Virus record (IMG/VR): IMGVR_UViG_3300033417_000008
Coordinates: 1 to 60,616 of that record
DNA length: 60,616 bases
Source: a virus
Direction: 5' to 3' (one strand)
Below are positions 11,358 through 60,616 of this stretch, one piece after another (the first letter of the stretch is position 1; every line of letters starts with the position of its first letter). The notes under the pieces were generated by a model that worked only from the letters and a program-made list of their open reading frames with translations, did no database searches and was not told the origin of the DNA. Both the position numbers and the translations under genes were made by a program.

Positions 11358-11361
11358 GATA

Positions 11362-12444: not shown

Positions 12445-12479
12445 ACAGGCATAATCAGAGCAAAAGAGAGGAGACTACC

Positions 12480-12710
12480 ATGGACCAAGCACAACTCGCG
12501 GCTATCGTCGTAGGAATCGTGGAGGCCATCAAACAGCTCGGGCTCGTGGACAGCCGTTGGCTGCCGCTCGTGTCAGGAATAGCGGGCATGCTCGTCATGT
12601 GCCTGGCAGCGGGCTTCTCAGCGCCGTCGATCCTCGCCGGTCTGGCCATCGGCCTCGGCGCCACCGGCATCTACGCGGCAGCCAAGGCTCTCGCGTCGAA
12701 GAGGGCCTGA
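12480..12710 (+). CDS. holin
   Basis: 76 aa; two hydrophobic helices (AAIVVGIVEAI; LPLVSGIAGMLVMCLAAGF..ILAGLAIGLGATGIYAAA); basic C-terminus KALASKRA; AGAGGAG RBS. Confidence 0.65.
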   Translation: MDQAQLAAIVVGIVEAIKQLGLVDSRWLPLVSGIAGMLVMCLAAGFSAPSILAGLAIGLGATGIYAAAKALASKRA

Positions 12711-12809: not shown

Positions 12810-13736
12810 GTGCAGGGTGGTCTGATCCAGGTCAGCGATCAGGCGATGGTCGCTCTCGCAGGTCTTGTGCTCACCGGGATGGGATCACTCGCCCTCTGGA
12901 TACGCGCGGTCCAGGACACAGCCAGCGCTCGCGAGTTGGCGCGTGTTGCGGGCCGGGTAGTCCGCGAGGGACCCAAGGCGGTGATGCTCCACCGCCTCGC
13001 ACGTATCGAGGCCTTTGTCGATGCGCTCGACGACCGCAACAACGCTCGAGATCGAAGCCGCATGGCCACCGCCCGCGAGGCGCTGCTCGGCGGGAATCCC
13101 GTGCACTGGTCGATCGAGGCCAAGCCGCACGCCGAGCGATGGGTGCATGACGAGTTCTCGACCGTGCACCTGAGCTCAGAGGGTATGGGGCTGGTGGCGC
13201 GAGACCTGCGGCGAAACATCGCCGACGGCCACCTCACCGACGATGAACAGGTCCACGCCGAGAATGGTCTGCGTGTGATCGAGGGGGCGTTGGCCTCGCG
13301 AGAACGACTCCGTCAGAGCGCACAGGAGATGACGCAGGACCGCAAGCTTGCGAGGCTACTGCTGATAGAAGATGATCACGCGGCCGCGGAGCTTACGCAG
13401 ATCGTGCTGCGGGTCACGGGCTACGAGGTGGCGGCTGTAGGATCGGCAGAGGCGGCCATGAGCGAGATCCACCGTGCACACGGTGCTGGGCAGCCGTACC
13501 AGATCCTGGTGATAGATCTGGTACTCCCGGACGTCTACGGACTGGAGCTGATCCGTCGGCTGCGCGCATCGGTCCTGACGGAGTCCACCCCGATTGTGGC
13601 GATCAGCGGGGCGCGTGGCGGCGAGTACGCTATCACGGCTGGCGCTGATATGTTTGTGGCGAAGCCGTACACGCCTACCGAGATCCGAGAGGCGGTGGCG
13701 GCTGTCCTCCAGGAAGGGAGTCGAGATGTCCATTGA
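12810..13736 (+). CDS. membrane-anchored protein with C-terminal response-regulator receiver (REC/CheY-like) domain
   Basis: N-terminal TM 'MVALAGLVLTGMGSLALWI'; REC motifs 'LLLIEDD', 'ILVIDLVLPD', 'IVAISG', 'FVAKPY' in canonical order. Confidence 0.75.
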   Translation: MQGGLIQVSDQAMVALAGLVLTGMGSLALWIRAVQDTASARELARVAGRVVREGPKAVMLHRLARIEAFVDALDDRNNARDRSRMATAREALLGGNPVHWSIEAKPHAERWVHDEFSTVHLSSEGMGLVARDLRRNIADGHLTDDEQVHAENGLRVIEGALASRERLRQSAQEMTQDRKLARLLLIEDDHAAAELTQIVLRVTGYEVAAVGSAEAAMSEIHRAHGAGQPYQILVIDLVLPDVYGLELIRRLRASVLTESTPIVAISGARGGEYAITAGADMFVAKPYTPTEIREAVAAVLQEGSRDVH

Positions 13737-29078: not shown

Positions 29079-29344
29079 CCGTGCACATCTCGCGTGACGA
29101 AAACGGCGGCGCCCAATCCGTTATCGACGCATACATGGTCGAGGGAGCGCTCCGTCGACTGGGAGTCGAGCACGACGTGGCTGTGGAGTATGCTGCGCTG
29201 GACCTGCGGCTCGTGCGGCTGGAGCTGATTCGGCTCCTCAACACAGGATCACCCGTACCGAGTGTCTTCGGGCTGCTGGACGCGAAGCTCGACCCGTGGG
29301 CTCATCTGACCAGCATCGCGCGGTTGAATGGAGTGGGGAAATGA
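29075..29344 (+). CDS. cassette gene B copy 1
   Basis: 89 aa; 'ALRRLGVEHDV..LDLRLVRLELIRLLNTGSPVPSVF..DPWAHLTSIARLNGV'; ATGA-coupled to gene A. Confidence 0.6.
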   Translation: MTVHISRDENGGAQSVIDAYMVEGALRRLGVEHDVAVEYAALDLRLVRLELIRLLNTGSPVPSVFGLLDAKLDPWAHLTSIARLNGVGK

Positions 29345-29454
29345 CACATCGAGGTTGGCTTGCGGTGGGGCTGGCCGTCCAGCTCGTGTGGCAGGCGCTT
29401 GTGGGCATCGGCTACGCCAAACTCGTCATCGCCGTCGTACAGTGGCCGACGTGA
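29341..29454 (+). CDS. 37-aa single-TM micropeptide
   Basis: 'MTHRGWLAVGLAVQLVWQALVGIGYAKLVIAVVQWPT'; ATGA upstream and GTGA downstream overlaps. Confidence 0.35.
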   Translation: MTHRGWLAVGLAVQLVWQALVGIGYAKLVIAVVQWPT

Positions 29455-30833
29455 GGCAGGACTATCAAGCGTTCCTCCACGCCAAAGCGCAGCGGGGCTC
29501 GGAATCTGGTTTTGCGCCACTCTGGTTGCCGGATAGCCTGTTCGACTTTCAGTTGGCCTTGACCGAGTGGGCGATCCGACAGGGACGATGCCTCATCGCG
29601 GCGGACTGTGGGCTAGGCAAGACCCCGATGCAGCTCGTGTGGGCGCAGAACGTGGTTGAGCAAACCAATCGATCTGTCCTCATCCTGACTCCGCTGGCCG
29701 TATCGCATCAGACGATCCGCGAGGCTGACAAATTTGGGGTGCCAGCAGTGCGACTTGGAGACGGCTGTCCAGATCGGCCGATGGTTGCGGTAACGAACTA
29801 CGAGAAGCTCGCTCACTTCGACCCTGCGGACTACGCGGGCGTTGTATGCGACGAGTCCAGCGTTCTGAAAGCATTCAGCGGGGTACGGCGAGCCCAGATC
29901 ACGGAGTTTCTGCGCACGGTCCCTTATCGCTCGTTATGGACTGCGACTGCTGCGCCGAACGACTACATCGAACTAGGCACATCGTCCGAGGCGCTCGGCG
30001 AATTGGGCTACATGGACATGCTCGGGCAGTTTTTCGTCAACGACCAGAAAACGTCGGCCACTCGCCGCTACCACGGGATGATGCCGAAGTGGCGATTCAA
30101 GGGGCACGGGGCGTTGCCCTTCTGGCGATGGGTGGTCTCATGGGCTCGTGCTTGCCGCAAGCCATCAGACCTCGGATTCGATGATGGCTCGTTCAGCCTG
30201 CTGCCGCTCTGCGAACGTGAGCACGTGATCGAGGCGCGGACGCTGCCGCCAGGAGCGCTATTCCCACTGCCTGCCAAGGACATGCTAGAGGAACGTGAGG
30301 AGCGACGCCGAACAATCCCCGAGCGATGCGAAGCGGCTGCCGAGTTGGTCGCCAGGACAGGGCAGCCCGCAGTGATCTGGTGTCACCTGAACGATGAGGG
30401 GGACATGCTCGCTCGACTGATCGCTGATGGTCAGCAGATCAGCGGGCAGGACTCAGACGAACGGAAAGAGGAGCTGTACGAAGCATTCAGCTCGGGCCAA
30501 CTACGAGTCCTGATCACAAAGCCAAAAATAGGAGCGTGGGGTCTGAACTGGCAACATTGCTCGCACGTCGTGTCCTTCGCCTCGCACAGTTACGAGCAGT
30601 ATTACCAATCGGTCCGTCGCTGTTGGCGATTCGGCCAGGAGCACCCTGTCATTGTAGACATGATCGCTTCAGAGGGCGAACAAGGTATCAAAGACAACCT
30701 CGCGAGGAAGTCGAAACAGGCAGATGAGATGTTCACGCAGCTTATAGCTCACATGGGCGAGGCCGCTCGCTCGGCACGCACAGAGTACGCAAAGATAGAG
30801 GAGATGCCATCGTGGCTGTCGCCGACCAACTGA
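29451..30833 (+). CDS. SNF2-family helicase
   Basis: 'AADCGLGKT' (I), 'VVCDESSVLK' (II), 'LWTATAAPN' (III), 'QSVRRCWRFGQ' (VI); ORF track start 29328. Confidence 0.85.
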   Translation: MRQDYQAFLHAKAQRGSESGFAPLWLPDSLFDFQLALTEWAIRQGRCLIAADCGLGKTPMQLVWAQNVVEQTNRSVLILTPLAVSHQTIREADKFGVPAVRLGDGCPDRPMVAVTNYEKLAHFDPADYAGVVCDESSVLKAFSGVRRAQITEFLRTVPYRSLWTATAAPNDYIELGTSSEALGELGYMDMLGQFFVNDQKTSATRRYHGMMPKWRFKGHGALPFWRWVVSWARACRKPSDLGFDDGSFSLLPLCEREHVIEARTLPPGALFPLPAKDMLEEREERRRTIPERCEAAAELVARTGQPAVIWCHLNDEGDMLARLIADGQQISGQDSDERKEELYEAFSSGQLRVLITKPKIGAWGLNWQHCSHVVSFASHSYEQYYQSVRRCWRFGQEHPVIVDMIASEGEQGIKDNLARKSKQADEMFTQLIAHMGEAARSARTEYAKIEEMPSWLSPTN

Positions 30834-31783
30834 TCACCGACCAATACGCGCTCTACAACGGTGACTGCCTGGAGGTCATGCATACCCTCCCTGGCCAATC
30901 GATACATCTGTCGCTTTACTCGCCTCCGTTCGCGGGGCTCTATCACTACAGCTCGTCCGACCGCGATCTGTCCAATGCGCGCGACTACGGTGAGTTCCTG
31001 ACTCACTACGAGTTCGTCATCGCGGAAATCGCACGGCTCACCATGCCTGGCCGTATGACGGCGGTCCATTGCATGGATGTCCCGAGCGGGAATACTGGCC
31101 TCGATCACCTGCTCGACTTTCCAGGTGACATCATCCGTTCTCATGCGAGGTTTGGCTTCCGCTACGTGGCGCGCTACCACGTGTGGAAAGATGCGCTGAT
31201 GGTTCGCAATCGCACCATGACCAAGGCTCTCGCTCACAAGTCTATCGTGGAGGACTCCTCACGGTGCACGGTAGCCGGGGCCGACTACCTGTTGATCTTC
31301 CGACGCGACGGCGAGAACCCCGTACCGATCAAGCATCCTGAGGGGCTGACCTCATATGCTGGATCAGAGCATATGCCTGCCGAAATCCAGCGATACCGGA
31401 ACTGGAAAGGACCCCAGATCGAGAATCGATTCTCCCATTGGATTTGGCAGCGGTACGCATCGGCATTCTGGGACGACGTGCGGCCTGATCGGGTGTTGCC
31501 CTTCCGCCCCGCACGCGACGCGGAGGACGAGAAACACGTACACCCGCTTCAGCTCGACATCATCGATCGCGCAATCACGCTCTGGTCAAACCCTGGAGAG
31601 ATCGTGCTGACGCCGTTCCTCGGGGTTGGCTCCGAGGCATTTGGAGCCGTGTCAGCGGGACGGCGAGCGGTGGGCATCGAACTGAAGGAGTCGTACTATC
31701 GCCAGGCCGTGAAGAATCTTAGTGCTGTCAGGAGCGATGAATCGAATGTTGATCTATTCGCCATGGCCGGAATCGAGGTATGA
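30812..31783 (+). CDS. beta-class DNA methyltransferase, probably N4-cytosine (SPPF) type
   Basis: Motif IV 'LYSPPFAG' precedes motif I 'TPFLGVGSE'. Confidence 0.8.
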   Translation: MAVADQLITDQYALYNGDCLEVMHTLPGQSIHLSLYSPPFAGLYHYSSSDRDLSNARDYGEFLTHYEFVIAEIARLTMPGRMTAVHCMDVPSGNTGLDHLLDFPGDIIRSHARFGFRYVARYHVWKDALMVRNRTMTKALAHKSIVEDSSRCTVAGADYLLIFRRDGENPVPIKHPEGLTSYAGSEHMPAEIQRYRNWKGPQIENRFSHWIWQRYASAFWDDVRPDRVLPFRPARDAEDEKHVHPLQLDIIDRAITLWSNPGEIVLTPFLGVGSEAFGAVSAGRRAVGIELKESYYRQAVKNLSAVRSDESNVDLFAMAGIEV

Positions 31784-42862: not shown

Positions 42863-43142
42863 CCTAGCCTCGGGCCACAAAACTATCGACTGCCCACGCG
42901 AGATGCCGGGATACGAGGACTGGCGTCACGATCTGCCCTCGCCCGTGTGGGCCCAGATCGGGCGGGACTGCTATGCCTCGAACCAGGGCCACGTCGTGAT
43001 CTGGTCGGTACACAGCAGCAGCGGCCAGGGCACGCTCTACTGGGGTGCCGAGGCTGCCGAGATTCGACAACGGTTCGCCCAAAGTGCGCACACTCGTGGT
43101 ACTTCGGACGTGCCAGGGGAGACCGCGACAGGCGATACTTAG
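42846..43142 (+). CDS. hypothetical protein
   Basis: GTG start chosen within ORF 42771..43142; start uncertain. Confidence 0.4.
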   Translation: MPSVFDLASGHKTIDCPREMPGYEDWRHDLPSPVWAQIGRDCYASNQGHVVIWSVHSSSGQGTLYWGAEAAEIRQRFAQSAHTRGTSDVPGETATGDT

Positions 43143-43156
43143 GGCGGAGGTGCTTT

Positions 43157-43285
43157 ATGGAAAAGCTCACTGTTCTGGGCTGGCGGTGTCTCAGGTGCGG
43201 GCACACCTGGAGACCGCGCCAGACCGAGCGGCCGCGCGTCTGTCCGCTGTGTAAGTCGGCCTACTGGGATCGGGAGAGGAGATGA
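43157..43285 (+). CDS. 42-aa zinc-ribbon protein ('CLRCGxTW..CxxCKSxxWD' family)
   Basis: 'MEKLTVLGWRCLRCGHTWRPRQTERPRVCPLCKSAYWDRERR'. Confidence 0.45.
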   Translation: MEKLTVLGWRCLRCGHTWRPRQTERPRVCPLCKSAYWDRERR

Positions 43286-43626
43286 TGGCAGCAGCAAAAC
43301 TCGCAAACCCGAGCAAGACCATCGGGGAGTACATCCGCTCCGAGATTGCGAAGGCGGCGGCTTCGCGTGAACCGGTCAGCCTGGCGGGGCTGGTCGAAGA
43401 CACGGTCGCCCACTTCAGGGCGCAGCCGAAATTTCTCGAAGCCTACTTCGCGCGCAACGGGCCCTCGCTCATCCACGAGATGGCGCGAAACATACGACCA
43501 CGCATGTGTCACTTCTGGAGCGCTCTACTCAGGCTTAAACAAGCGGACTGCCGCCTTATACTTTGCCTATTGTGTCCACACTACGTTGTTCTGAGGACAT
43601 GGGGGTACAATCCTCGGCATGACTGA
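43282..43626 (+). CDS. hypothetical protein (3' third runs through an AT-rich stretch; true end doubtful)
   Basis: 114 aa; ATGA overlap. Confidence 0.4.
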   Translation: MMAAAKLANPSKTIGEYIRSEIAKAAASREPVSLAGLVEDTVAHFRAQPKFLEAYFARNGPSLIHEMARNIRPRMCHFWSALLRLKQADCRLILCLLCPHYVVLRTWGYNPRHD

Positions 43627-45397
43627 AAAGGCGTCACAAACAAAAGAGGGCACCTGGCGGAACCGAATCGTCGGCTATGGTGAAGAGGACCCGGGTATGC
43701 TCGTGGCGAATCCGAAGAATTGGCGCGTCCATCCGAAGGTGCAGCAGGACGCTCTCAACGGCGTCCTGCGCGATGTGGGGGTGGTCCAGAACATCATCGT
43801 CAACCGGACCACCGGACACGTGGTAGACGGCCATCTCCGAGTGGCTTTGGCGATCCGTGAGAAGCATCCCTCGATTCCAGTGACCTACCTCGAGTTGAGC
43901 GAGGCCGAAGAGGCAGAGGTCCTCGCCACGCTGGACCCGCTCTCAGCGATGGCCGCAACGGACAAGGATCAACTCGACGCGCTGTTGCGTGACGTGAGCA
44001 CAGCGGATGCCAACGTGATGTCGATGCTGGCTTCTCTTGGGGAGAGGAAGTCACTTGATCGCTCAGTTCTCCTGAGCGATATCTTCGAGTTAGTCGTGGC
44101 ATGCAGTGATGAGGACGACCTGCACATGCAGTTTTCAAGGATGACCGAAGAAGGACGCTCATGCCGGACACTTATGCTAGCGAAGTCCAAGAGGCCCATC
44201 GAGCATGGGCGTAGCGCGGACATGGACCTGCCCGGTCATGTAGAGATCATCAGGCGGTCAGATGTACCGGAGTCATGGCGGACCGCGCGTGTGAAGGGTT
44301 TATTCGACCTCCCTTCAGCAACAAGTCGTGAATTTCGATTATCCATGGATCTGGACCTATCCGGAAGTGACTGGGGGATCGGTGTGATAACTGGCGCATC
44401 TGGCTCCGGGAAGAGCCAGCTCGCGAGAGAGCTTTACGGAAACGTCATAGAGCCAGAGTCTATGCGGTGGTCCGCATCGAGCATCCTTGACGATTTCCGA
44501 GAAGACCTGAGCGTGGATGAGATCACGAGTGCATTAACCGCTGTTGGGTTTTCATCGACGCCGAACTGGTTATGTCCCTATTCTGTTCTCTCCTTAGGAG
44601 AGCGGTTTCGGGTTGTTGTCGCACGTGCCCTTGTTGAGGCCGATGCGGACCACCCACTAGTTATCGATGAGTTCACAAGCGTCGTTGATCGAATCGTGGC
44701 GAAGGTATGTGCTACGGCTATAGCCAAGGCCGTGCGACTGAGGAGCCAGCGGATGGTGGCGGTGACATGTCATCGGGATGTGATCCCCTGGCTGAATCCT
44801 GATTGGGTGATCGACCTTGATACGCGGAGGTGCCTTCCTCGATCCATCGAGTCTCGACCTAGCATCATCCTACGGCTCTATCCTGCGCAGCGCGACGCGT
44901 GGGGAATGTTCCGCCATGCGCATTATCTGAGCGGCGATTTGCACAAGTCATCGCAGTGCTGGGTTGCGTCAGTGGAGTTAGATGATCGAATAGAGCGGAT
45001 GGCAGCGTTCCTAGCCTACCTTCCAGCATTGGGGATGGCAGGATGGAAACGACAGCACAGAGTAGTCGTGCTGCCGGACTTTCAGGGCATCGGGGTTGGG
45101 AGTCAATTGCAAGACATGGCGGCGGAGCGAGTATGGGAGCAGGATCATCGGCGAGTCCGTGCTACAGGATCATCACCAGCCATGATCAGCCATCGGCGAG
45201 GACATCCGGAAGCATGGAAACTGGTATCCAAGCCGCAAATCGTAAAACGCAGCTACTCTGCGCTTAACGGCCCGAGAGGAGTGCGTAATTCAGCCGGACG
45301 ACTGACCACGAGTTGGGAGTACATCCCCCAGTCGCTGCGTGAGTCGGAATCTCAATCTGACCAGGTCGACGCTGGTCAGATCCTTGTGGGGGTATAG
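43619..45397 (+). CDS. ParB-like nuclease domain + ABC-type ATPase + GNAT-like acetyltransferase fusion protein
   Basis: 'NPKNWRVHP..IIVNRTTGHVVDGHLR'; 'ITGASGSGKSQL', 'LSLGERFRVVVARAL', 'LVIDEFTSVVD'; 'HRVVVLPDFQGIGVGSQL'. Confidence 0.75.
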   Translation: MTEKASQTKEGTWRNRIVGYGEEDPGMLVANPKNWRVHPKVQQDALNGVLRDVGVVQNIIVNRTTGHVVDGHLRVALAIREKHPSIPVTYLELSEAEEAEVLATLDPLSAMAATDKDQLDALLRDVSTADANVMSMLASLGERKSLDRSVLLSDIFELVVACSDEDDLHMQFSRMTEEGRSCRTLMLAKSKRPIEHGRSADMDLPGHVEIIRRSDVPESWRTARVKGLFDLPSATSREFRLSMDLDLSGSDWGIGVITGASGSGKSQLARELYGNVIEPESMRWSASSILDDFREDLSVDEITSALTAVGFSSTPNWLCPYSVLSLGERFRVVVARALVEADADHPLVIDEFTSVVDRIVAKVCATAIAKAVRLRSQRMVAVTCHRDVIPWLNPDWVIDLDTRRCLPRSIESRPSIILRLYPAQRDAWGMFRHAHYLSGDLHKSSQCWVASVELDDRIERMAAFLAYLPALGMAGWKRQHRVVVLPDFQGIGVGSQLQDMAAERVWEQDHRRVRATGSSPAMISHRRGHPEAWKLVSKPQIVKRSYSALNGPRGVRNSAGRLTTSWEYIPQSLRESESQSDQVDAGQILVGV

Positions 45398-45616
45398 GCG
45401 CTGGAGGCTGGATTGACGATCGGCGTCCATGCTGGCAATGGAGATGATCTCGTGACTATCCACAGTCAGCAGCGCGAATGGGGGCCGCGGGCCACATTGC
45501 GCGCGGACAACTTCCCCCGGATTCGGGAGGCCGGATCGATTTGGGCGGACCGTCTCCATCTTTCTCCCCGCCAGCACATCAGCAGCCAGCGCAGCCGTGA
45601 ACCAGACCGATTTCAT
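45290..45616 (-). CDS. ASCH/PUA-like domain protein (tentative)
   Basis: 'MKSVWFTAALAADVLAGRKMETVRPNRSGLPNPGEVV..ALLTVDSHEII'; converges on and overlaps the 3' end of 43619..45397. Confidence 0.45.
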   Translation of the reverse strand: MKSVWFTAALAADVLAGRKMETVRPNRSGLPNPGEVVRAQCGPRPPFALLTVDSHEIISIASMDADRQSSLQRLYPHKDLTSVDLVRLRFRLTQRLGDVLPTRGQSSG

Positions 45617-46124
45617 CCTGGCCAAACCTCCCAGTTCAGAATTCACGCACACAGATTATACCCCAAGCGCTTGCGCGCTGGAGGGGTTTACGCCTGATCA
45701 GAAGCCAGTCCCCCGCGACCCAGCTCTCGACCCGCGGCGGAAGGCCGCAGGCGAGTGGCGGCCGGCCTTCCTCGCGACACTGAAGGGGTCGGCGAATGTA
45801 CGACTCTCGTGCCAGGCGGCTGGGATCGGCCGTCAGATGGCCTATCGATGGCGCGACCGCTCGCCGACATTCCGCCGCGAGTGGGACATCGCTATCGAAG
45901 AGGCGGTCGATACGCTGGAAGCGGCTGCCAGAGCTCGCGCCCTCGCGGGCGACTCGGTGCTCCTCATCTTCCTCCTCAAAGCGCATCGACCTGACATCTA
46001 CCGCGAAACCGTCCGCCACGAGCTGTGGATTCAGCGCGAGGCGGCCAAGCTCGCCGAGGCACACGCCACAACACCCGAGCGGGTGATCCTGCTCGCCGAG
46101 CGGCTGAAGGAGAAGACCGTGTGA
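45597..46124 (+). CDS. terS: terminase small subunit (start uncertain)
   Basis: 'NVRLSCQAAGIGRQMAYRWRDRSPTFRREWDIAIEEAVDTLE..LLIFLLKAHRPDIYRE' HTH pattern; GTGA-coupled to terL. Confidence 0.65.
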   Translation: MNQTDFILAKPPSSEFTHTDYTPSACALEGFTPDQKPVPRDPALDPRRKAAGEWRPAFLATLKGSANVRLSCQAAGIGRQMAYRWRDRSPTFRREWDIAIEEAVDTLEAAARARALAGDSVLLIFLLKAHRPDIYRETVRHELWIQREAAKLAEAHATTPERVILLAERLKEKTV

Positions 46125-47677
46125 CCACGAAGGGGCTCTCTGCACCTGAGTTCCTGGCCTACGTGCCGACCATCGAGGCGCTGCTCGCGCGTGGCTATAC
46201 CGTCGATGAGCTGATCGAAATCCTCGACCAGGCTCCATCGGTCCCCGACACGCCCCCCGAGCACTGGGCCGACTGGCTCCGCGCCTACTTCCCGACCTAC
46301 ACGACCCACGCCTTCGGGCGGCACCACGTCGAGTTGTGGGAGTGGGCCTGGGCCATTCGCTCAGGGGAGCGGCCCCGCCCATTCGTGGCGATTTGGCCGC
46401 GCGGAGGGGCAAAATCGACGTCCGCAGAAATGGCGGTCTGTGCGCTCGGTGCCCGAGTGGCTCGCCGCTACACCCTCTACATTTGCCGCACCCAGGAGCA
46501 GGCTGACGACCACGTGGGCAACGTGGCGAGCCTGCTGGAGTCCGAGCGATTCGGCGCGGCGTACCCGCAAATCACGGAGCGGATGCTCGGTAAGTACGGC
46601 AACTCGCGAGGTTGGCGGCGCAACCGACTGCGCACGTCCACGGGCTTCACGGTGGACGCCATCGGCCTCGACACGGCGGCCCGAGGGGTGAAGCTCGAGG
46701 AACAGCGGCCAGACCTGATCGTGTTAGACGACCTCGACGACCCGCTCGATTCGCCCGCGACCGTCGAGCGGAACATCATCGTGCTGACCCGCTCGCTTCT
46801 TCCCGCGGGAACCGATGACGTGGCGGTTCTCGGCGTTCAGAACCTCGTGCGCGAGGACGGCATCTTCGCCCGCCTGGCCGACGACCGAGCCGACTTCCTC
46901 GCAGACCGCATCGTGTCGGGCCCACTTCCCGCGCTTCTGAACGAGGCTCACGAGGTTATCGATGGCCGCACGGTACTGGTCGCGGGTGATCCAGTATGGG
47001 AGGGGCAGAACCTCGAAGCCTGTCAGCGGATCGTGGAGCGGGACGGCATCAGCTCGTTCCTCATTGAATCGCAGCATGAGGTGGACCAGTTCCGGGGCGG
47101 CACATTCGCCGACATCGAGTTTCGCCATTGCGAGTGGGCCGAGGTCCCGGACCTGGTACGTGTCGCGGTATGGTGCGACCCAGCTGTGACCGACAAGGAC
47201 AGCTCCGATGCCAACGGCATACAGGCCGATGGGCTCGGCCGTGACGGCAAGCTCTATCGGCTGTTCTCGTGGGAGCGGCGAGCGAGCCCCGAGGTAACGC
47301 TCAGGACGGCGATTCTGAAGGCTGTCGAGCTCAAGGGCGATCACGTTGGGATCGAGACAGACCAGGGGGGCGACGTGTGGAGGCCGGCGTACGATAAGAT
47401 TTGGGCTGATCTGGTAGCCTCAGGGGAGATACCCGAGGGGACCCGGAAGATATCGATGCGGCAGGAGAAGGCGGGTGCAGGTTTCGGGCCGAAGGCGCAC
47501 CGTGGTCAGCAAATGCTTCCGGACTACGAGCGTGGCCAGATCGTCCACGTGATTGGCACCCACGCGCTCCTTGAGCGCTCGCTTCGGCGCTTCCCGTTAC
47601 GGAAGCCTTTTGACCTAGTCGATGCGTGCTTCTGGTCGCACCACGCGCTCCGTCGGCCAGGCTGGATGGCATATTGA
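46121..47677 (+). CDS. terL: terminase large subunit
   Basis: Walker A 'WPRGGAKST', Walker B 'DLIVLDDLDD', C-terminal nuclease-sized half; ORF track start 46025. Confidence 0.9.
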   Translation: MTTKGLSAPEFLAYVPTIEALLARGYTVDELIEILDQAPSVPDTPPEHWADWLRAYFPTYTTHAFGRHHVELWEWAWAIRSGERPRPFVAIWPRGGAKSTSAEMAVCALGARVARRYTLYICRTQEQADDHVGNVASLLESERFGAAYPQITERMLGKYGNSRGWRRNRLRTSTGFTVDAIGLDTAARGVKLEEQRPDLIVLDDLDDPLDSPATVERNIIVLTRSLLPAGTDDVAVLGVQNLVREDGIFARLADDRADFLADRIVSGPLPALLNEAHEVIDGRTVLVAGDPVWEGQNLEACQRIVERDGISSFLIESQHEVDQFRGGTFADIEFRHCEWAEVPDLVRVAVWCDPAVTDKDSSDANGIQADGLGRDGKLYRLFSWERRASPEVTLRTAILKAVELKGDHVGIETDQGGDVWRPAYDKIWADLVASGEIPEGTRKISMRQEKAGAGFGPKAHRGQQMLPDYERGQIVHVIGTHALLERSLRRFPLRKPFDLVDACFWSHHALRRPGWMAY

Positions 47678-49002
47678 TCCCCGCATTCCTCGCCCGCACC
47701 GGATCAGCGCTCAAACAGCTGACGCGCATGGTGTTCAGCCGGGGGCGCACATGGGCGGTTTCCTGGCTGGCGGGGACAACGGTCCACTACGAGCGAGAGA
47801 TCAACCCGTACACCAACGCCATCGTCATGTCAGTGGTCAACTGGGTGGCGAGGACATTCCCCGAGGCGCCGCTAAGGGTGCTTCGCCGTAGCGATGAGCA
47901 CATGGAGCCGGTGGCCGACCATCCGATGATCGCGCTGCTGCGCCGTCCGAACCCGTACTACTCGGGCATCGTGCTCTGGATGGCCACGATAGCTTCGTGG
48001 ATGATCACCGGCAATGCCTACTGGCTTAAGATTCGTGCCAGCGCGGGCAACGTGGTAGAGCTATGGTGGGTTCCGCCCTCGATGATGGAGCCTGCCTGGC
48101 CGCCCGATGGCACCCAGTTCATCAGCCACTACGACTATCGCCCCGATGGACGGGCCATACCGATCCGCGTGAACATCGCTGACGTCGTTCATCTACGCTA
48201 CGGTATCGATCCCGACAACCCGCGCAAGGGCCTATCCCCGCTTGCCGCTGTGGTGCGGGAGATTTACACCGACGACGAAGGCGCAAACTTCTCGGCGTCG
48301 CTCCTTCGGCACGTCGGGGTCCCTGGGGTCATTATCACGCCGGATGACGAGGGCAACCCGATCCAGCGCGAAGAAGCGGATCAGATGAAACAGGAATTCG
48401 CCACGAAGTTCACAGCGGACCGGCGCGGCGAGCCGATGATCCTGTCGAACAAGACGAAGGTGCAGGTTTTGTCGTTCTCGCCTGAGCAGATGAGTCTCAG
48501 AGACATGCGCCAGGTGCCAGAAGAGCGCATAACGGCGGTGTTTGGTGTTCCGGCCATTGTCGTTGGGCTCGGAGCGGGTTTGGCCCGTAGCACGTTCGCA
48601 AACTTCGCTGAAAGTCGCGAAGCTGCCTATGAGGGGTGTATCATCCCGACACAAAGGTTGTTTTCCGAGGACCTGAGAGTGCAGCTTTTGGCCGACTTCG
48701 CTGATATCAAGCAGCACGATATCGACTTCGATCTGTCGAAGGTACGGGTGCTCCAGGAAGATCAGAACAAGATGGTAGATCGACTGACGCGTTCGCTATT
48801 GGCTGGTGGATTGCAGCTCAACAGCTACCTGCGTCAGATCGGAGAAGAGGAGCTCGGGCCTGGTGGAGAGATTTTCTACGTGCCGTCGAACGTGCTGCCG
48901 ACGCCTGCGAGCGAGATAGCGATGCTCACACGCCCCGTAGACACCGCGCCCGAAGGGCCCGTGCCGACGAATGGGACGACGAACGGAGTGGTTGCGGCGT
49001 GA
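47674..49002 (+). CDS. portal protein (HK97-type)
   Basis: 'ALLRRPNPYYSG..WMITGNAYWLKIR..VVELWWVPPSMMEP'; TTGA overlap start (alternatives ATG 47626 / 47728). Confidence 0.85.
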   Translation: MIPAFLARTGSALKQLTRMVFSRGRTWAVSWLAGTTVHYEREINPYTNAIVMSVVNWVARTFPEAPLRVLRRSDEHMEPVADHPMIALLRRPNPYYSGIVLWMATIASWMITGNAYWLKIRASAGNVVELWWVPPSMMEPAWPPDGTQFISHYDYRPDGRAIPIRVNIADVVHLRYGIDPDNPRKGLSPLAAVVREIYTDDEGANFSASLLRHVGVPGVIITPDDEGNPIQREEADQMKQEFATKFTADRRGEPMILSNKTKVQVLSFSPEQMSLRDMRQVPEERITAVFGVPAIVVGLGAGLARSTFANFAESREAAYEGCIIPTQRLFSEDLRVQLLADFADIKQHDIDFDLSKVRVLQEDQNKMVDRLTRSLLAGGLQLNSYLRQIGEEELGPGGEIFYVPSNVLPTPASEIAMLTRPVDTAPEGPVPTNGTTNGVVAA

Positions 49003-55951: not shown

Positions 55952-56103
55952 TGGAGCTAAGAGACGAGGTCAAGCGCTGCGGGTACTGTACAAAGCTGAC
56001 CCGTCCGCGGTGCCAGGTGTGCTGCGGCCTCGGTTGGGTCAGATGGGCAGATCCGCGCCTGCGAATGGTTGCGGATTGGCGACACCGGATGGGGATTATC
56101 TGA
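55951..56103 (+). CDS. Cys-rich 50-aa protein
   Basis: 'RCGYCTKLTRPRCQVCCGLGW'. Confidence 0.4.
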   Translation: MELRDEVKRCGYCTKLTRPRCQVCCGLGWVRWADPRLRMVADWRHRMGII

Positions 56104-56795
56104 TGCCCTGGAAGCTGGCGCAGTGGAAGCCATGCGACGGCGGGTGCTCGGTGCGCTCGCCGCGCTTCCCTCGTCCTGATCGGCTGGGCACGGTGCCTGG
56201 GCGTAACCCGCGTTACATGGCAGGCGACGTCATGCAAATGCAGGAGCCTGGGGGTACATCTCCTGATGGTATAGCCTGGGTTGGCGGCAATCGTGCGCTA
56301 AAAGAGCTGTGGGAGCTGTACGAGAGTGTAGAACGCAATGCTCAACGGATTAGAGCACGAGATGTACAGGCTCTACCATCTATCACTGAGATACTGGCCA
56401 GAACGGTCGACGTCGGGCCTGCATGGGCCGAGCGAGGGCCATTGCAGTGGCATCTCGATACTGACTTCGGCTGGCCAGTGCGCGGGCCTCACATTCAGGC
56501 CATGCTAGGTAGGTTGGCAGCACTGGGCTTGTGGGACCCCGACTTCTACTCGACGGGCATGGACTATGACACGGTGTTTCCTGACGAGTGGGTGGTGCTA
56601 CCTGGTGAGCCACCGCGCGAGTTGCCCGAGGGCACGCTGCTGGCAGTCGAGGGGCATGTCGCTGTAGGTATGCCGTTCGTCAGGCAGGGGTTTGGCCAGT
56701 TCGGCGGCCAGACGTTCCACGTCGAGCATTGGATGACCGAAGCTGAGCGTGCGGTACAGGAGCCCGCCTGTTGCCACATGTGGGTGCCTATATAG
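56103..56795 (+). CDS. hypothetical protein
   Basis: 230 aa from the TGATG-coupled ATG. Confidence 0.5.
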   Translation: MPWKLAQWKPCDGGCSVRSPRFPRPDRLGTVPGRNPRYMAGDVMQMQEPGGTSPDGIAWVGGNRALKELWELYESVERNAQRIRARDVQALPSITEILARTVDVGPAWAERGPLQWHLDTDFGWPVRGPHIQAMLGRLAALGLWDPDFYSTGMDYDTVFPDEWVVLPGEPPRELPEGTLLAVEGHVAVGMPFVRQGFGQFGGQTFHVEHWMTEAERAVQEPACCHMWVPI

Positions 56796-57350
56796 ATGGC
56801 TACTGCTTATCTTCTTCCAGATGCAGATGTGGACCACACCTGGGCATCTGCTGGTTCTGGCGATACTGGTACTGGCTGGGATAATGTCAACGATCCTGTT
56901 GGATCTCCCGATGACGATGTAACCTATATTACGATAGCAGGCAAGTCTGGCGTTGTTTCGGATCAATGCTCGATGCAGGACGTTCCTGTCGACTTCTCTT
57001 CGGCGTTAACAGGACTTATTCATAGCAGAGTGTCGATAAGTGGTCGAGTTGACGATAGCATCAATTACTCAGCGAGGGCGACTTACACAGGAGGACAGCT
57101 CGCCAATTTCTTTACGCTTACTGACAATACGAGTGGGTATGAAGATAAGGTCTCTGCTTCTCCGTTGGATATTTCGGCCAGAACGGACACAGAGATAAAT
57201 GGTGGGGTGCAGTGGAACCAATGGGCCGACACCGTTTCTGGCATGGACGACGGTGCGCTGTGCAAGGTAACGCAAATTTACTTCGAGTTGAACTACACGC
57301 CGACCGGTGCTGGTGGTAACCCATGGAATGCATACGCGCAGCAGATGTGA
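56796..57350 (+). CDS. hypothetical protein in a lower-GC island
   Basis: 184 aa; visibly AT-richer codon usage than its flanks. Confidence 0.5.
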   Translation: MATAYLLPDADVDHTWASAGSGDTGTGWDNVNDPVGSPDDDVTYITIAGKSGVVSDQCSMQDVPVDFSSALTGLIHSRVSISGRVDDSINYSARATYTGGQLANFFTLTDNTSGYEDKVSASPLDISARTDTEINGGVQWNQWADTVSGMDDGALCKVTQIYFELNYTPTGAGGNPWNAYAQQM

Positions 57351-57360
57351 GGTAAGGTAA

Positions 57361-58422
57361 GTGCCCGACCTCTGGATGGACGTAGACGCCGCTCTGGCCG
57401 AAGTTCCGGTCAACGTCATGCCGCTTGTCGACGACACCGACTTCAAGACTCGTGAAGTGAGCGTGACCTTCGACCAGGCCGGCATGGACCTGGTCTGGAA
57501 TTTTGTCACGACGGCAGGCGCCTACACCCAGACGGCCGTCACGCCGGCGACCTCGGGGGATTATCTGTGGACCAACGAGGGCGACGGCATGTACGCCCTC
57601 CAGATACCCGCATCGGGTGGAGCCACGATCAACAACGATACCGAGGGGTTCGGCTGGTTCACTGGATTCGCAACCGGCATCCTCCCCTGGCGTGGCCCGG
57701 TGATCGGCTTCCGTGCGGCTGGCCTCAACAACCTGATGATCGATGACGCCTTCAGCGCAACGCGAGGGCTGGCGGGAACAGCGCTCCCAGCAGCAGAGGC
57801 GGATGGGGTCGGCGGCCTGCCGATTTCGGACGCTGGCGGGTTGGACCTCGACGCGATCCTGGCCGACACTGCCGACATGCAGCCCAAGCTCGGGACGCCC
57901 TCTGATCTGGGCTCTGGTGCCACGCTGGCGGGGAACCTCGTGGATGTGGAAGGCCAGACCGACGACATCGGAGCGGCTGGGGCTGGCTTGACCGCGATCA
58001 CGGACCGACTTCCCGCGGCCCTGGTCGGTGGGCGGATCGATGCCTCGGTTGGGGCCATCGCGGCTGACGTGATCACCGATGCGGGGGTCGGGACCGACCT
58101 TGATACCTACCAGGCGAAGATAGACCTGGTAGACGATGAGGGCGCCACGACCGACAGGTGGGTCGTCGTGTGGCACAAGAACGGGGTGCCAGTGCTGGCC
58201 TCGATCACCTCGCCCACTATTCAGGTGATCAAGGCATCCGATGGCACCGACCTGATCGCGGCCTCGGCTATGACCGAGATTGGCACGACCGAGACGTACA
58301 AGTACGATGCCACCACGACCGAGCGGACCGTGTCCGGTGCCGCCTATGTGGTTATTGTCCAGGCGACCATCGACGGCTCGACGCGAACCGCAGCGCAGGT
58401 GATGGGCCGGGATAGCGCGTAG
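57361..58422 (+). CDS. fibre-like / virion protein, function unknown
   Basis: 353 aa; G/A/D/T-rich central region; directly upstream of the repeat protein. Confidence 0.45.
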   Translation: MPDLWMDVDAALAEVPVNVMPLVDDTDFKTREVSVTFDQAGMDLVWNFVTTAGAYTQTAVTPATSGDYLWTNEGDGMYALQIPASGGATINNDTEGFGWFTGFATGILPWRGPVIGFRAAGLNNLMIDDAFSATRGLAGTALPAAEADGVGGLPISDAGGLDLDAILADTADMQPKLGTPSDLGSGATLAGNLVDVEGQTDDIGAAGAGLTAITDRLPAALVGGRIDASVGAIAADVITDAGVGTDLDTYQAKIDLVDDEGATTDRWVVVWHKNGVPVLASITSPTIQVIKASDGTDLIAASAMTEIGTTETYKYDATTTERTVSGAAYVVIVQATIDGSTRTAAQVMGRDSA

Positions 58423-58424
58423 CC

Positions 58425-60616
58425 ATGGCCGGGAATCTGCGGTTCCCGCGCAGGGTTGATTTCCTCCCATTCAGCAGGCGGCGTGTCAAGCCTGGGACTG
58501 CTGGCGGCACGCCGATTGTCAGCACTCAGGCTGGCCTGAGCGGGACTCAGGCGCTTGACGCTGCCGCGCTGCTGCTGGTCCAGGCCCAGTCCTCACAGCA
58601 GGGCGCTGGATTTCTCGATACTGCCGCACTCCTGATCGTTCTCGCCCACGCCGCACAGGCGGGAGCATCCACCCTCTCCGCGACGGCCGATGCGATCAGG
58701 GAGGCCGTCGTCGCCATCGATGGGCGCGGTCAACTTGACGTGGCGCCAGTTGTCGTCATCGATGCTGCCGCCGAGATTCACGGTGCCTCGGCCCTTACGG
58801 CGGCAGCTACGCGCGTGGTCGATGCCGAGAGTGTGATCACCGGCGCCTCCAACTCCGATATCGCAGCCACCATTGCCGTTGATGCTCAGGCAGCGCTCGC
58901 GGGGACATCGGCAATCGATATCAGCCTGGCCCGCATCCACGAGGCGGCCATCGATGCGTCGGGCGCTGGATCATCAGATGCCGCTGCCGTTCGTGTCGTG
59001 GATGGGGTACTCGTAGCCTCGGGTACGGGATCGCTCACCGCGATGGCCATGGCCTTCGCCGAGATCACGACGGACATCACAGGAGCCTCCACACTGGATG
59101 TCTCGGCGACCCGGATCGTGGAGGCTGAGACTGCGCCGAGCGGATTAGGCGCGACGGACGCAGATGCGCTCTCGCTGGTACTCGCCCAGTCCGCTCAACA
59201 TGGATCCGGGCTGACGACTGTCGAGGCTACCCCAGTCCGCGATGGTGTGGTGACAGCCACCGGGGCGGGATCGCTTGACGCGGTCGGGGTGATCATTGCC
59301 GCCGTTATCGACACGCAGGCCGAGATCACAGGTGCAGGGTCTCTTGACGCCACGAGCACTCGGATCGTGGATGCCGCTGCGAGCTTGACGGGCGCGAGTG
59401 CCGTTGCCGTCGTGGCAGTACGAGTCACCGAGGGGCTGTCGGCTCAGACAGGCGCATCGGCACTCACGGCCGCGGCCGTCGTCATTGTGGATGGGGCATC
59501 GGTTCTCGCGGGGGCGGGTGCATCCGATATCTCTGCTGCGACCCTTGTGGAGGCAGCGTGCTCACTGGTCGGCGCGGGTGCTCTCGATGCCACATCAACG
59601 CGGATCGCCGATGCTGTCGTCTCTGCTCATGGAACGTCGGTCATCGATGCTGGCTCTGTTCGGATCGCTGAATTGGCATCGATCCCGAGCGGCACGGGCG
59701 CCCTCGACGTCGTGGCAGTTGACATCGCCCTCGCTCAGGCGGACTTCGCGGGTGTTGGTGCTGTGGATGCTGCGTCCATCGCCATCTCGCTCCCGTCGGC
59801 GTCGATCAGCGGTGCAGGACAGATCGATGCAGTGGGGACGGTTGTAGCAGCCAGCGTGGTCGATGCCGACGCCCATCTGTCCGGTGCATCCACGATTAAC
59901 AGCGCGACTCTTGCGCTGGTCCACGTCCAGAGCACGCCAGCCGGCAGTTCGGCACTTGCGGCTGTCGCGCTGGTTGCGGTCCCGGCAGAGAGCGCACAGG
60001 TGGGCTACAGCTCGATCCAAGCTACATCGACAGCACTGCGCGAGGCTGCGGTAACCATAACTGGAGCAGTGGCCCTCGACGCGGCGGCTACGGCTGTCGT
60101 TGATGCGGCGGCAAGTCTCGCGGGAGCGGCGTTCGCCGCCGTGGGCGCAGATCGAGTCGCCACTGGCCAAGCGGTACTCACGGGATCGGCAGAGTCCGCT
60201 GTGGCCGCTATCGCCATCTCACTCCCGTCGACATCGCTTAGCGGTGCGGGACAGATCGACGCAACGGGGATAGTTGCCGCGGCGAACGTAGTTGACGCCG
60301 CCGCCCACTTGGCAGGGGGCAGTGCCCTCGCCAGCGCGTCTACCGTCACGGTCATGGTCCAGATCGCTGCCACAGGAAGCACTGCACTCGCAGCCACCGC
60401 GACGGTTGTGGTGACGGCACTGAGCGACGGAGCTGGGTACGGATCGCTCCAGTCGGCCGCGACTGCGCTTCGCGAGGCTGCGACATTAGCGACGGGCGCG
60501 AGCGCCGTTGATGTAGCGCTCGTGCGCGTCGTGGATGTGGCGGCCAGCCTTACGGGATCGGCTGTTGTCGCCGCGAGCGCAGAGCGTGTCGTCGAGGGCC
60601 AATCGGCACTGACGGG
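58425..60616 (+). CDS. 5' part of wrap-around gene: ~892-aa protein made of ~20-aa repeats (continues at 1..614)
   Basis: My own translation from ATG 58425 shows no stop to the window end; absent from the ORF track because it lacks a stop in the window; 'MAGNLRFPRRVDFLPFSRRRVKPG..' then repeats 'TGAGSLDATSTRIVDAAASL'. Confidence 0.8.
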   Translation, partial: MAGNLRFPRRVDFLPFSRRRVKPGTAGGTPIVSTQAGLSGTQALDAAALLLVQAQSSQQGAGFLDTAALLIVLAHAAQAGASTLSATADAIREAVVAIDGRGQLDVAPVVVIDAAAEIHGASALTAAATRVVDAESVITGASNSDIAATIAVDAQAALAGTSAIDISLARIHEAAIDASGAGSSDAAAVRVVDGVLVASGTGSLTAMAMAFAEITTDITGASTLDVSATRIVEAETAPSGLGATDADALSLVLAQSAQHGSGLTTVEATPVRDGVVTATGAGSLDAVGVIIAAVIDTQAEITGAGSLDATSTRIVDAAASLTGASAVAVVAVRVTEGLSAQTGASALTAAAVVIVDGASVLAGAGASDISAATLVEAACSLVGAGALDATSTRIADAVVSAHGTSVIDAGSVRIAELASIPSGTGALDVVAVDIALAQADFAGVGAVDAASIAISLPSASISGAGQIDAVGTVVAASVVDADAHLSGASTINSATLALVHVQSTPAGSSALAAVALVAVPAESAQVGYSSIQATSTALREAAVTITGAVALDAAATAVVDAAASLAGAAFAAVGADRVATGQAVLTGSAESAVAAIAISLPSTSLSGAGQIDATGIVAAANVVDAAAHLAGGSALASASTVTVMVQIAATGSTALAATATVVVTALSDGAGYGSLQSAATALREAATLATGASAVDVALVRVVDVAASLTGSAVVAASAERVVEGQSALT

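Follow-up and report, generated by a model that had tools for sequence, protein, structure and literature searches.

The DNA considered here, called the window, is a phage-like contig of 60,616 nucleotides (nt) (60.6 kb; IMG/VR record IMGVR_UViG_3300033417_000008, positions 1 to 60,616). Directly ahead of its terminase genes it carries a gene in which a ParB-like N-terminal domain, a short linker, an ABC-type ATPase domain and a GNAT acyltransferase domain are fused into one protein of 592 amino acids (aa). On the opposite strand lies a small gene for an ASCH protein resembling YqfB of E. coli, and the 3' ends of the two genes overlap. The YqfB-like ASCH subfamily depends on the ParB/ABC-GNAT module, whereas the module usually does without an ASCH gene. 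The reading favoured here is that the module is an ATP-dependent base N-acyltransferase that uses acyl-coenzyme A (acyl-CoA), probably acts on cytosine N4 in DNA, and has a deacylase as an optional partner; its probability is roughly 0.4. The core of this reading, namely that a writer of N-acyl groups on nucleic acids or nucleotides is matched by an eraser of N4-acylcytosine, stands at slightly better than even odds. An earlier interpretation of the two genes (the sequence-only reading) had proposed a nucleic-acid-directed acyltransferase as writer and an ASCH protein as its reader or eraser. Its observation is confirmed. Its interpretation is partly supported: the architecture and the pairing hold, the acyl chemistry and the substrate are proposals, and the fusion has turned out to be common and not a single case.

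Evidence for the pairing comes from the genomic neighborhoods of both genes. One approach began with viral contigs that were found by the YqfB-like ASCH pattern alone, together with four homologues in ENA, NCBI, and JGI assemblies. Nine of the 11 viral loci had an ABC-GNAT gene directly adjacent to the ASCH gene and a ParB-like open reading frame (ORF) upstream of ABC-GNAT. Eight of these nine were convergent with overlapping ends, and one was co-directional with a 4-nt overlap. The remaining two loci were a truncated contig and a contig in which a stand-alone GNAT lies beside ASCH. All four homologues in the other assemblies had ABC-GNAT and ParB neighbors. Overall, ~14 of the 15 evaluable YqfB-like ASCH loci carry ParB/ABC-GNAT within 3.5 kb, and in ~12 of them the genes are directly adjacent, mostly convergent, and overlap at their 3' ends. 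The overlap at most related convergent loci is 4 to ~240 nt, while a few loci are gapped (up to 447 nt). Furthermore, the closest ASCH homologue with a known context (P0123, 55% identity) shares a contig with the closest homologue of the fusion protein (P0002, 52%).

The opposite approach began with the ABC-GNAT genes. It covered 80 IMG/VR loci drawn from at least 597 relatives, which amounted to 75 independent loci, and 69 independent GTDB loci. An ASCH gene was scored if it lay on the opposite strand within 700 nt downstream, and expected counts were derived from how densely ASCH genes occur in the rest of the same flanks. A convergent ASCH gene was present at 5 of 75 viral loci (0.81 expected, P 0.0015) and at 2 of 69 genome loci (0.22 expected, P 0.02). 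Thus, the co-occurrence of ParB-ABC-GNAT with ASCH that the sequence-only reading had put forward as a check is found in both directions, and the reverse linkage is much stronger than the forward one. In other words, the conserved neighborhood backs a pairing of writer and ASCH, but ASCH is not a constant partner as only ~5-7% of ABC-GNAT loci carry it. The same convergent spot holds two unrelated ASCH subtypes, a YqfB-like one (the window, L032, and L034) and a GKER-type 'phage ASCH' (L003, L027, L051, L069, L140, and L143), and ASCH-bearing loci are scattered over a neighbor-joining tree of the ABC-GNAT proteins. When 118 other minus-strand ORFs just downstream of ABC-GNAT genes were screened for additional ASCH genes, only helix-turn-helix (HTH) proteins turned up. 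At three loci (L098 3495-4276, L099 3003-4306, and L101 2012-4267) the YqfB-like ASCH gene is the last of 3-5 opposite-strand genes, one of them HicB-like, and these blocks sit between ParB/ABC-GNAT and the terminase; in the window ASCH stands alone.

Could the neighborhood reflect synteny without function? ASCH genes would then be common cargo of a variable pre-terminase region, and the arrangement would be inherited by descent. ASCH genes are frequent in phages, the viral flanks hold 10 matches at distances above 700 nt, and the low forward frequency would be expected of passive cargo. What such a model does not predict is a reverse linkage of ~14/15 on contigs with ABC-GNAT proteins from scattered parts of the family tree, the involvement of two or three unrelated ASCH subtypes, or the enrichment at the abutting position (P 0.0015). 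Moreover, the one exception still pairs ASCH with a stand-alone GNAT. Mere synteny is a highly improbable explanation.

The overlap of the 3' ends is open to more than one functional interpretation. Under the favored reading, it would make expression of the writer and expression of the eraser antagonistic. A toxin/antidote or exclusion model instead holds that ABC-GNAT acylates host nucleic acid or aminoacyl-tRNA to cause shutoff or abortion, that ASCH is the antidote, and that the antisense overlap makes expression mutually exclusive, an arrangement known from certain restriction-modification and type I toxin-antitoxin loci. The conserved convergent layout fits this model, GNAT toxins are well known, and a likeness to toxin-antitoxin loci has been discussed for operons that combine GNAT-EVE, ASCH, and an ATPase close to defence systems (PMC7641849). 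However, most writers have no ASCH nearby, a situation that would be intolerable for a lethal toxin. The writer is also co-directional with the late/packaging operon at whose head it stands, and ASCH is co-directional with the writer in Streptococcus pyogenes prophage 315.4, L090, and L100. The toxin/antidote model is very unlikely. A toxin-antitoxin GNAT of the TacT/AtaT type was rejected because the GNAT domain lies inside a 370-590 aa ATPase fusion and has no ribbon-helix-helix partner; most ABC-GNAT loci have no paired small gene of any kind.

Is the minus-strand ORF a real gene? Searches with the single sequence returned nothing from Pfam, NCBIfam, PADLOC, PDB (phmmer), cultured phages (tblastn), or a word-indexed homologue search. 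These results would have argued for a spurious ORF, but they were overturned by an exhaustive HMMER scan of 1.84 billion representative sequences, which yielded 88 full-length homologues of ~90-100 aa (best 4.8e-22). The ORF also shows a coding-type GC periodicity and is preceded by GGGAGG, and a spurious ORF in a GC-rich genome was rejected on grounds that include these. The ORF is a real gene, and it is conserved, a point that the sequence-only reading had left to be checked. Its alignment (87 sequences) has a mean column identity of just 17%, with K19, T22, R24, and F47 invariant.

The ASCH assignment, for which the single sequence gives no Pfam match, was upheld by the family. Pfam ASCH (PF04266) matched 63 of the 87 homologues, and a profile of the family picked out E. 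coli YqfB, an N4-acetylcytidine amidohydrolase, alone from the PDB (1te7, 1.1e-10; 9kyf). Further evidence comes from an AlphaFold2 (AF2) model with a predicted local distance difference test (pLDDT) score of 92.1. The best Foldseek matches of this model were YqfB 9kyf and 9kyh (E 8e-6, template-modeling (TM) score 0.67-0.75, root-mean-square deviation 2-3 Å), which include a complex with N4-acetylcytidine (ac4C), and other ASCH structures ranked next. Like YqfB (PDB 1te7, 9kyf-9kyh), the phage protein is predicted to be a single ASCH beta-barrel of ~100 aa with the same essential Lys/Thr/Arg octapeptide, although it has a deletion of ~11 residues and is encoded next to a GNAT gene, whereas YqfB is the product of a chromosomal salvage gene. 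K19, T22, and R24 align to K21, T24, and R26 of YqfB, which are the catalytic Lys, the Thr nucleophile, and the Arg of the oxyanion hole and whose alanine mutants are inactive (PMC6972931). ASCH proteins of both the GKTR and the GKER type remove ac4C from tRNA (bioRxiv 10.64898/2026.02.27.708502). Tyr75 of the phage protein (YP, aa 75-76) lines up with Tyr89-Pro90 of YqfB when the alignment is judged by eye. Judged from the family profile and the model, the product is a YqfB-like ASCH protein, and amidohydrolase activity is predicted for it.

The 592-aa ORF of the fusion protein was found as it had been described, with all the motifs quoted for it in place: NPKNWRVHP (aa 31-39), VVDGHLR (aa 68-74), Walker A GASGSGKS (aa 259-266), the signature-like LSLGERFR (aa 324-331), Walker B LVIDEFTSVVD (aa 347-357), and GNAT motif A VVVLPDFQGIGVGSQL (aa 482-497). 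The ParB, ABC, and GNAT calls were upheld by profile searches, Foldseek, and AF2. The AF2 model, built with the family alignment (pLDDT 89.6), orders the elements as ParB-N (17-141), a short beta-alpha-beta linker, ABC (~205-410), and GNAT (~415-580). The four folds carry intact catalytic motifs under purifying selection; conservation of the ABC and GNAT motifs was read in an alignment of 120 sequences.

Residues 28-138 match ParB-like and ParB-methyltransferase PHROGs (phrog_498, 1e-14; phrog_620, 9e-11). The N-terminal family profile matches Spo0J (1vz0, 3.5e-8) and also ParB and Noc in the PDB, and its 'LIDGHLR' aligns with 'LVAGERRYR' (Box II) of Spo0J. A BFVD structure search found ParB/Sulfiredoxin phage proteins at 2e-12, PF02195 is present on the homologues P0059, P0073, P0094, and P0117, and the N-terminus also matches that of PADLOC MTase_II. 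A canonical partition ParB was rejected, as the N-terminal domain alone matches and there is no HTH domain, dimerization domain, or nearby parA gene. Box II of the fusion is DGHLR with one Arg, in contrast to the GERRxR arginine patch of canonical ParB. The linker (VVACSDEDD...; FELVVACSDEDDLHMQFSRMTEEGRSCRTL) had been called a module often seen after phage ParB domains. This was not confirmed: the module is conserved in the fusion family, tblastn with it against cultured phages gave no match, and none was found outside the family. In split versions of the fusion, it forms the C-terminal end of the separate ParB-like protein, and ORFs of the split loci match the profile to position ~175.

The ABC domain matches ABC_tran of Pfam at 9.7e-5 (23.4 bits vs a cut-off of 25), a match that spans the Walker A stretch only, and NCBIfam models of ABC nucleotide-binding domains match as well. 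The top Foldseek matches in the PDB were the nucleotide-binding domains of the ABC transporters MalK, HlyB (HlyB-NBD), CbiO/EcfA, and FtsE (1e-7 to 1e-5). G259, S261, G262, G264, K265, S325, G327, D350, E351, D357, and H385 are invariant. The annotations 'ABC transporter' and 'iron siderophore transporter' in phage records were rejected, there being no membrane domain in the AF2 model and no permease partner. These labels are misnomers because a membrane partner is missing and the neighbors are ParB, ASCH, terminase, and CoA enzymes.

In the C-terminal part, motif A (beta4-alpha3) has the form Q/R-x-x-G-x-G/A, which is the signature for binding the CoA pyrophosphate. R481, P486, D487, Q489, and G490 do not vary across the alignment, and at least 90% of the sequences keep G492 and G494. 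Acetyltransf_1 of Pfam matches the fusion protein at 2e-3, and PF13508/PF00583 match many homologues above the cut-off. A profile of the segment retrieved GNATs only from the PDB, and weakly (E 0.18-0.9). The order of elements in the AF2 model (b1-a1-b2-b3-b4-a3-b5-a4-b6-b7) is consistent with the GNAT fold. What does this GNAT acylate? One possibility is a protein or small molecule. An AcrVA5-like acetylation of a protein of host defence or of packaging would be an example, and ASCH would then serve as a nucleic-acid-binding or regulatory partner or as a salvage enzyme for acylated nucleosides. Such a role would be in keeping with most GNATs, which modify proteins or small molecules; with the identity of the weak PDB matches, which are diamine and other small-molecule acetyltransferases; with an ABC domain that is transporter-like rather than DNA-repair-like; and with the more than 90% of ABC-GNAT loci that lack ASCH. 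It would leave unexplained the near-restriction to ABC-GNAT loci of a YqfB-type subfamily whose catalytic K/T/R never vary, the presence of a second ASCH subtype at the same spot, and the constancy of ParB. A protein or small-molecule substrate seems decidedly unlikely.

Indirect evidence for an acyl-CoA-dependent activity comes from other neighbors. In the Rhodococcus/Gordonia phage Jace (L095, NC_047974.1, 2489-5254), a ParB gene (gp85) and an ABC-GNAT gene (gp86) are followed by genes for PanD (gp87) and a family III CoA-transferase (gp88), and gp87 is a genuine aspartate 1-decarboxylase (PanD; Pfam 2e-33). The pair of PanD and CoA-transferase also follows ABC-GNAT in L049 1916-2970, L079 1796-2826, and L080 3478-4516, where it is translationally coupled; the overlaps at these loci, Jace included, are 4 nt long. 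These two enzymes are what is needed to make beta-alanyl-CoA, and therefore the GNAT would be a true acyl-CoA-dependent transferase whose acyl group varies among phages. In other words, these phages may themselves provide beta-alanyl-CoA for use as an alternative donor. In the Mu-like Burkholderia phage phiE255 (L097, NC_009237.1, 3043-4775), the ABC-GNAT gene (gp29) lies behind the tail-fibre genes and has no ParB annotated beside it; its end runs into a formyltransferase gene (gp30; Formyl_trans_N, 3e-21). S. pyogenes prophage 315.4 has, in this order, a ParB-N protein, ABC, a GNAT piece, ASCH, a terS-like gene, terL, and portal.

The fusion is no isolated oddity, as the size of its family shows. 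At least 2,823 homologues were found in the word-indexed search, and residues 210-572 match PHROG 11143 (listed as function unknown) at 1.5e-80 over profile positions 3-352 of 357. Homologues occur as fused forms of ~570-590 aa and as forms of ~370 aa without ParB, and many carry PF00005 together with PF13508/PF00583 and sometimes PF02195. The family members are usually found just before terS/terL, and terminase subunits and portal were the commonest downstream genes at the 80 viral loci. Well-known cultured phages and prophages carry the gene, including Jace, EastWest, S. pyogenes 315.4/phiNIH1.1, Lactococcus P335, Burkholderia phiE255, and Leptospira LE4. The closest structural match in BFVD was a 'GNAT family N-acetyltransferase' of phage LE4 (4e-29, TM 0.82), followed by ParB/Srx proteins and ParB-methylases. 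More than 570 relatives are present in IMG/VR, and likewise more than 570 in GTDB genomes. The best 80 GTDB genome relatives of the fused form (L102-L181) belong almost entirely to Planctomycetota (Pirellulales, Planctomycetaceae, Gemmataceae, Thermoguttaceae, and Phycisphaerae), which suggests that Planctomycetota prophages are a main reservoir of this form. For the same reason, the window is probably a Planctomycetota phage. The ABC and GNAT parts are separate ORFs in S. pyogenes prophage 315.4 (L096 3486-4555) and in L100 2190-3262. They are split at a similar place (profile positions ~392 and ~429-465); the split could be natural or could stem from a frameshift or an error in sequencing. 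The contig of the closest fusion homologue (L002 3939-8096) has NeuB sialic-acid synthase-like, cupin, and CMP-sugar cytidylyltransferase-like genes downstream of the fusion and an ArdC-like antirestriction gene upstream of it; nonulosonic-acid genes are an unusual cargo for a phage-like contig.

How might the module work? The GNAT domain would move an acyl group from acyl-CoA, with acetyl-CoA as the basic donor, to an exocyclic base amine. Cytosine N4 is the most likely position because ASCH enzymes deacylate it. The ABC ATPase would form an ATP-sandwich dimer whose ATP cycle clamps or remodels the substrate and so exposes the base to the GNAT site. This role would be similar to that of ATP hydrolysis in TmcA/NAT10. 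The reaction of TmcA/NAT10 uses acetyl-CoA and hydrolysis of a nucleoside triphosphate, and its product, ac4C, is the substrate of ASCH deacylases. The ParB-fold domain would bind nucleotide and/or DNA and recruit the enzyme to DNA, by analogy with phage ParB-methyltransferase fusions and the ParB-like DpdB. Since the gene heads the packaging operon, the favored substrate is phage DNA that has been replicated and is about to be packaged or is being packaged, and the outcome would be protection against host nucleases. The 108-aa ASCH protein would strip the N4-acyl group as a YqfB-type amidohydrolase, thereby reversing, limiting, or proofreading the mark on DNA, RNA, or nucleotides. The most specific version of this mechanism, in which a ParB-guided ABC-GNAT N4-acylates cytosine in phage DNA at packaging and ASCH erases the mark in those variants that have it, the acyl group being acetyl, or beta-alanyl where PanD and CoA-transferase are present, is put forward tentatively and is doubtful in its details. 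On this view, many tailed phages would have a DNA-modification pathway that has gone unnoticed, and some variants would be able to undo the mark.

Parts of this mechanism have precedents in known systems. Mom of phage Mu is a GNAT-fold protein that makes the N6-carbamoylmethyl modification of adenine in DNA and thus provides a precedent for a GNAT-fold enzyme that acts on an exocyclic base amine in phage DNA. In the DpdA/DpdB system, a ParB-like NTPase assists the insertion of 7-deazaguanine into DNA and is a precedent for a ParB-like helper. The module differs from both, because Mom has no detectable sequence relation to it and works without an ATPase, ParB, or eraser, and Dpd carries out transglycosylation as opposed to the proposed acylation. 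Phage ParB-DNA methyltransferase fusions resemble the protein described here in that a ParB-N domain without HTH or dimerization domains is joined to a modifying enzyme, in prophages and often before the terminase (PMC12704722). Their partner is a methyltransferase that uses S-adenosylmethionine, whereas here it is ABC plus GNAT. A 2025 survey of the ParB-CTPase fold catalogues fusions of ParB to an acetyltransferase (a GTP binder), to ASCH, and to PUA-like domains, but does not describe the ABC-GNAT module or an ASCH partner (PMC12704722). A combination of GNAT, ASCH, and a P-loop ATPase is also found in (PIN)-GNAT-EVE operons with ASCH and AAA_17. As related from Iyer et al. 2013 in Bell et al. 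2020 (PMC7641849), these operons were proposed to acetylate a DNA base and were linked to virus-host conflict. They are mostly cellular and defence-associated, with GNAT fused to EVE (with or without PIN), AAA_17 as the ATPase, and no ParB or terminase. The system as read here would be a variant of phage nucleic-acid modification.

The comparison with TmcA/NAT10 (Kre33) raises the possibility that RNA is the target. A P-loop ATPase and a GNAT are joined in one protein in TmcA too, and the sequence-only reading had offered it as an analogy with a different ATPase class, a distinction that proved correct, the ATPase being ABC-type and not RecD-like. TmcA has a RecD-like helicase ATPase, DUF1726, and a tRNA-binding domain, in contrast to the ABC-type ATPase and ParB N-terminus of the fusion. 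No sequence relation between the two was detected beyond the generic GNAT fold; the likeness is one of analogy, not homology. Membership of the TmcA family was rejected because Pfam gave no match to Helicase_RecD, GNAT_acetyltr_2 (PF13718), or tRNA_bind_2, and because of the ABC-type ATPase. ABC-GNAT could still be a functional analogue of TmcA/NAT10 that writes ac4C or N-acyl groups on host or phage tRNA, rRNA, or mRNA and tunes translation late in infection, with ASCH as an eraser of ac4C in tRNA. The shared architecture of ATPase and GNAT speaks for this, as do the only demonstrated ASCH activities, which are on the ac4C nucleoside and tRNA (PMC6972931; bioRxiv 10.64898/2026.02.27.708502), and the classical association of PUA/ASCH domains with RNA (PMC7641849). 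It fits poorly with a module that is constantly fused or adjacent to a ParB fold and lies beside the terminase, given that the partners of the phage ParB fold are mainly DNA methyltransferases (PMC12704722). Neither a tRNA-binding domain nor a specific likeness to the TmcA GNAT or helicase was found in Pfam. Furthermore, the variants with PanD and CoA-transferase suggest a charged aminoacyl mark, which would fit the known logic of phage DNA hypermodification. An RNA target is unlikely, though it ranks first among the rival readings.

Several observations weigh against DNA acylation as the function of the module. The Acetyltransf_7 match of the window sequence (Pfam 3.7e-5) is below threshold, at 24.4 bits vs a cut-off of 27. 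In Foldseek, the ABC domain is transporter-like and not akin to the DNA-handling Rad50, MutS, and UvrA clades. More than 90% of ABC-GNAT loci have no ASCH gene nearby, and therefore the writer works alone at most loci. Many unrelated accessory genes of phages typically sit beside the terminase as well, and no acylated base is known from any phage with a ParB/ABC-GNAT module. The phage ASCH family is without the segment of ~11 residues ('haeqenmtlte') that carries His70 and Glu74 of YqfB, the latter being the acid of a proposed Thr-Lys-Glu triad, and no acidic column is conserved in place of this segment. The E74A mutant of YqfB is 100-1000 times slower (PMC6972931), and thus the mechanism or substrate of the phage ASCH may differ. 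The characterized ASCH deacylases work on nucleosides and tRNA, not on DNA (PMC6972931; bioRxiv 10.64898/2026.02.27.708502). Literature searches found no description of the ParB/ABC-GNAT module or its ASCH partner, though an earlier prediction in comparative-genomics work is possible.

The features of the two genes and of the terminase region are collected in Table 1. The window has a GC content of 63%, and nearly all its genes are on the plus strand. The overlap of the fusion and ASCH genes, previously put at ~108 nt, is of exactly that length, and the starts of the ASCH and terS genes are back-to-back as had been described. The ATG of ASCH lies 20 nt inside the first candidate start of terS (GTG 45597), and the ASCH ORF alternatively reaches 45652 with an upstream GTG start. 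No clear ribosome-binding site was seen at the first GTG of terS, and there is a 100-nt overlap between the listed ORFs of terS and terL; the starts given for the two genes are tentative. A scan of 45000-46000 for promoters and terminators found nothing exceeding chance, and a DNA similarity search with 43000-48000 against cultured phages gave no match.

Table 1. Coordinates of the fusion gene, the ASCH gene, and the neighboring packaging genes in the window
Feature	Position	Strand	Remarks
ParB-N/linker/ABC ATPase/GNAT fusion gene	43619..45397	+	592 aa, ATG start; matches PHROG 11143; predicted 'writer'
ParB/Srx N-terminal (ParB-CTPase fold) domain	43667..44041	+	aa ~17-141; NPKNWRVHP and DGHLR (Box II-like)
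Short beta-alpha-beta linker module	44084..44173	+	conserved in fused homologues; E156 invariant
ABC-type ATPase domain	44231..44848	+	aa ~205-410
ABC motif: Walker A	44393-44416	+	
ABC motif: LSxGE signature-like	44588-44611	+	
ABC motif: Walker B/catalytic Glu/D-loop	44657-44689	+	
ABC motif: H-loop	44762-44779	+	His385
GNAT acyl-CoA N-acyltransferase domain	44861..45358	+	aa ~415-580
GNAT motif A	45062-45109	+	Q489-G490-I-G492-V-G494
ASCH gene, YqfB-type (GKTR)	45290..45616	-	108 aa from ATG; predicted N4-acylcytosine amidohydrolase, 'eraser'
ASCH octapeptide G17-K19-T22-R24	45545-45571	-	GxKxxTxR, GKTR type
Convergent 3'-end overlap of fusion and ASCH genes	45290..45397	both	dual coding, exactly 108 nt
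Shine-Dalgarno-like GGGAGG	45627..45632	-	10 nt upstream of ASCH ATG; read from sequence
Small terminase subunit (terS)	45597..46124	+	phrog_4044, 1.9e-17; start uncertain
Large terminase subunit (terL)	46025..47677	+	phrog_38, 5.6e-38
Portal gene	47626..49002	+	after terL

The AT-rich center and C-terminal part of the fusion gene had been taken as a sign of acquisition. The lower GC is real, because the gene falls in a stretch (44101..45300, GC 0.56 vs a contig mean of 0.629) that is among the three on the contig where GC is lowest and that ranks in the bottom 1.2% of its 1.2-kb windows; as a sign of recent acquisition, this is weak evidence. The other two stretches are at ~11100-12700 and ~56200-57500 (GC 0.545-0.56), and their ORFs at 11362-12444 (+), 56010-56795 (+), and 57118-58470 (-) have no Pfam match. 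Elsewhere, the window encodes a separate N6/N4 DNA methyltransferase without a ParB domain (30812-31783, +; PF01555, 3.6e-16), which adjoins a helicase-C protein (29328-30833); the phage thus already has a conventional DNA-modifying enzyme. Response-regulator receiver domains are uncommon in phages, but the 308-aa protein at 12810-13736 (+) has one at its C-terminal end (PF00072, 8e-17).

The window genes are new members of a large uncharacterized family, and the pair may constitute an undescribed reversible system of nucleic-acid modification. If the favored reading is true, base N-acylation, possibly with variable acyl groups, would join the modifications of phage nucleic acids, and the very large family PHROG 11143 (at least 2,800 proteins), now labeled 'ABC transporter-like / hypothetical', would gain a function. 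ASCH deacylases would gain a natural partner enzyme and a biological context, including their first biological role on DNA. The pair would be the first natural writer/eraser pair for DNA acylation and the first enzymatic one for N4-acylcytosine outside RNA, and would be relevant to anti-restriction strategies, to the discovery of new marks by sequencing, and to the dispute over whether N4-acetylcytosine (4acC) exists in DNA. As cultured phages carry ParB/ABC-GNAT, the module can be tested directly.

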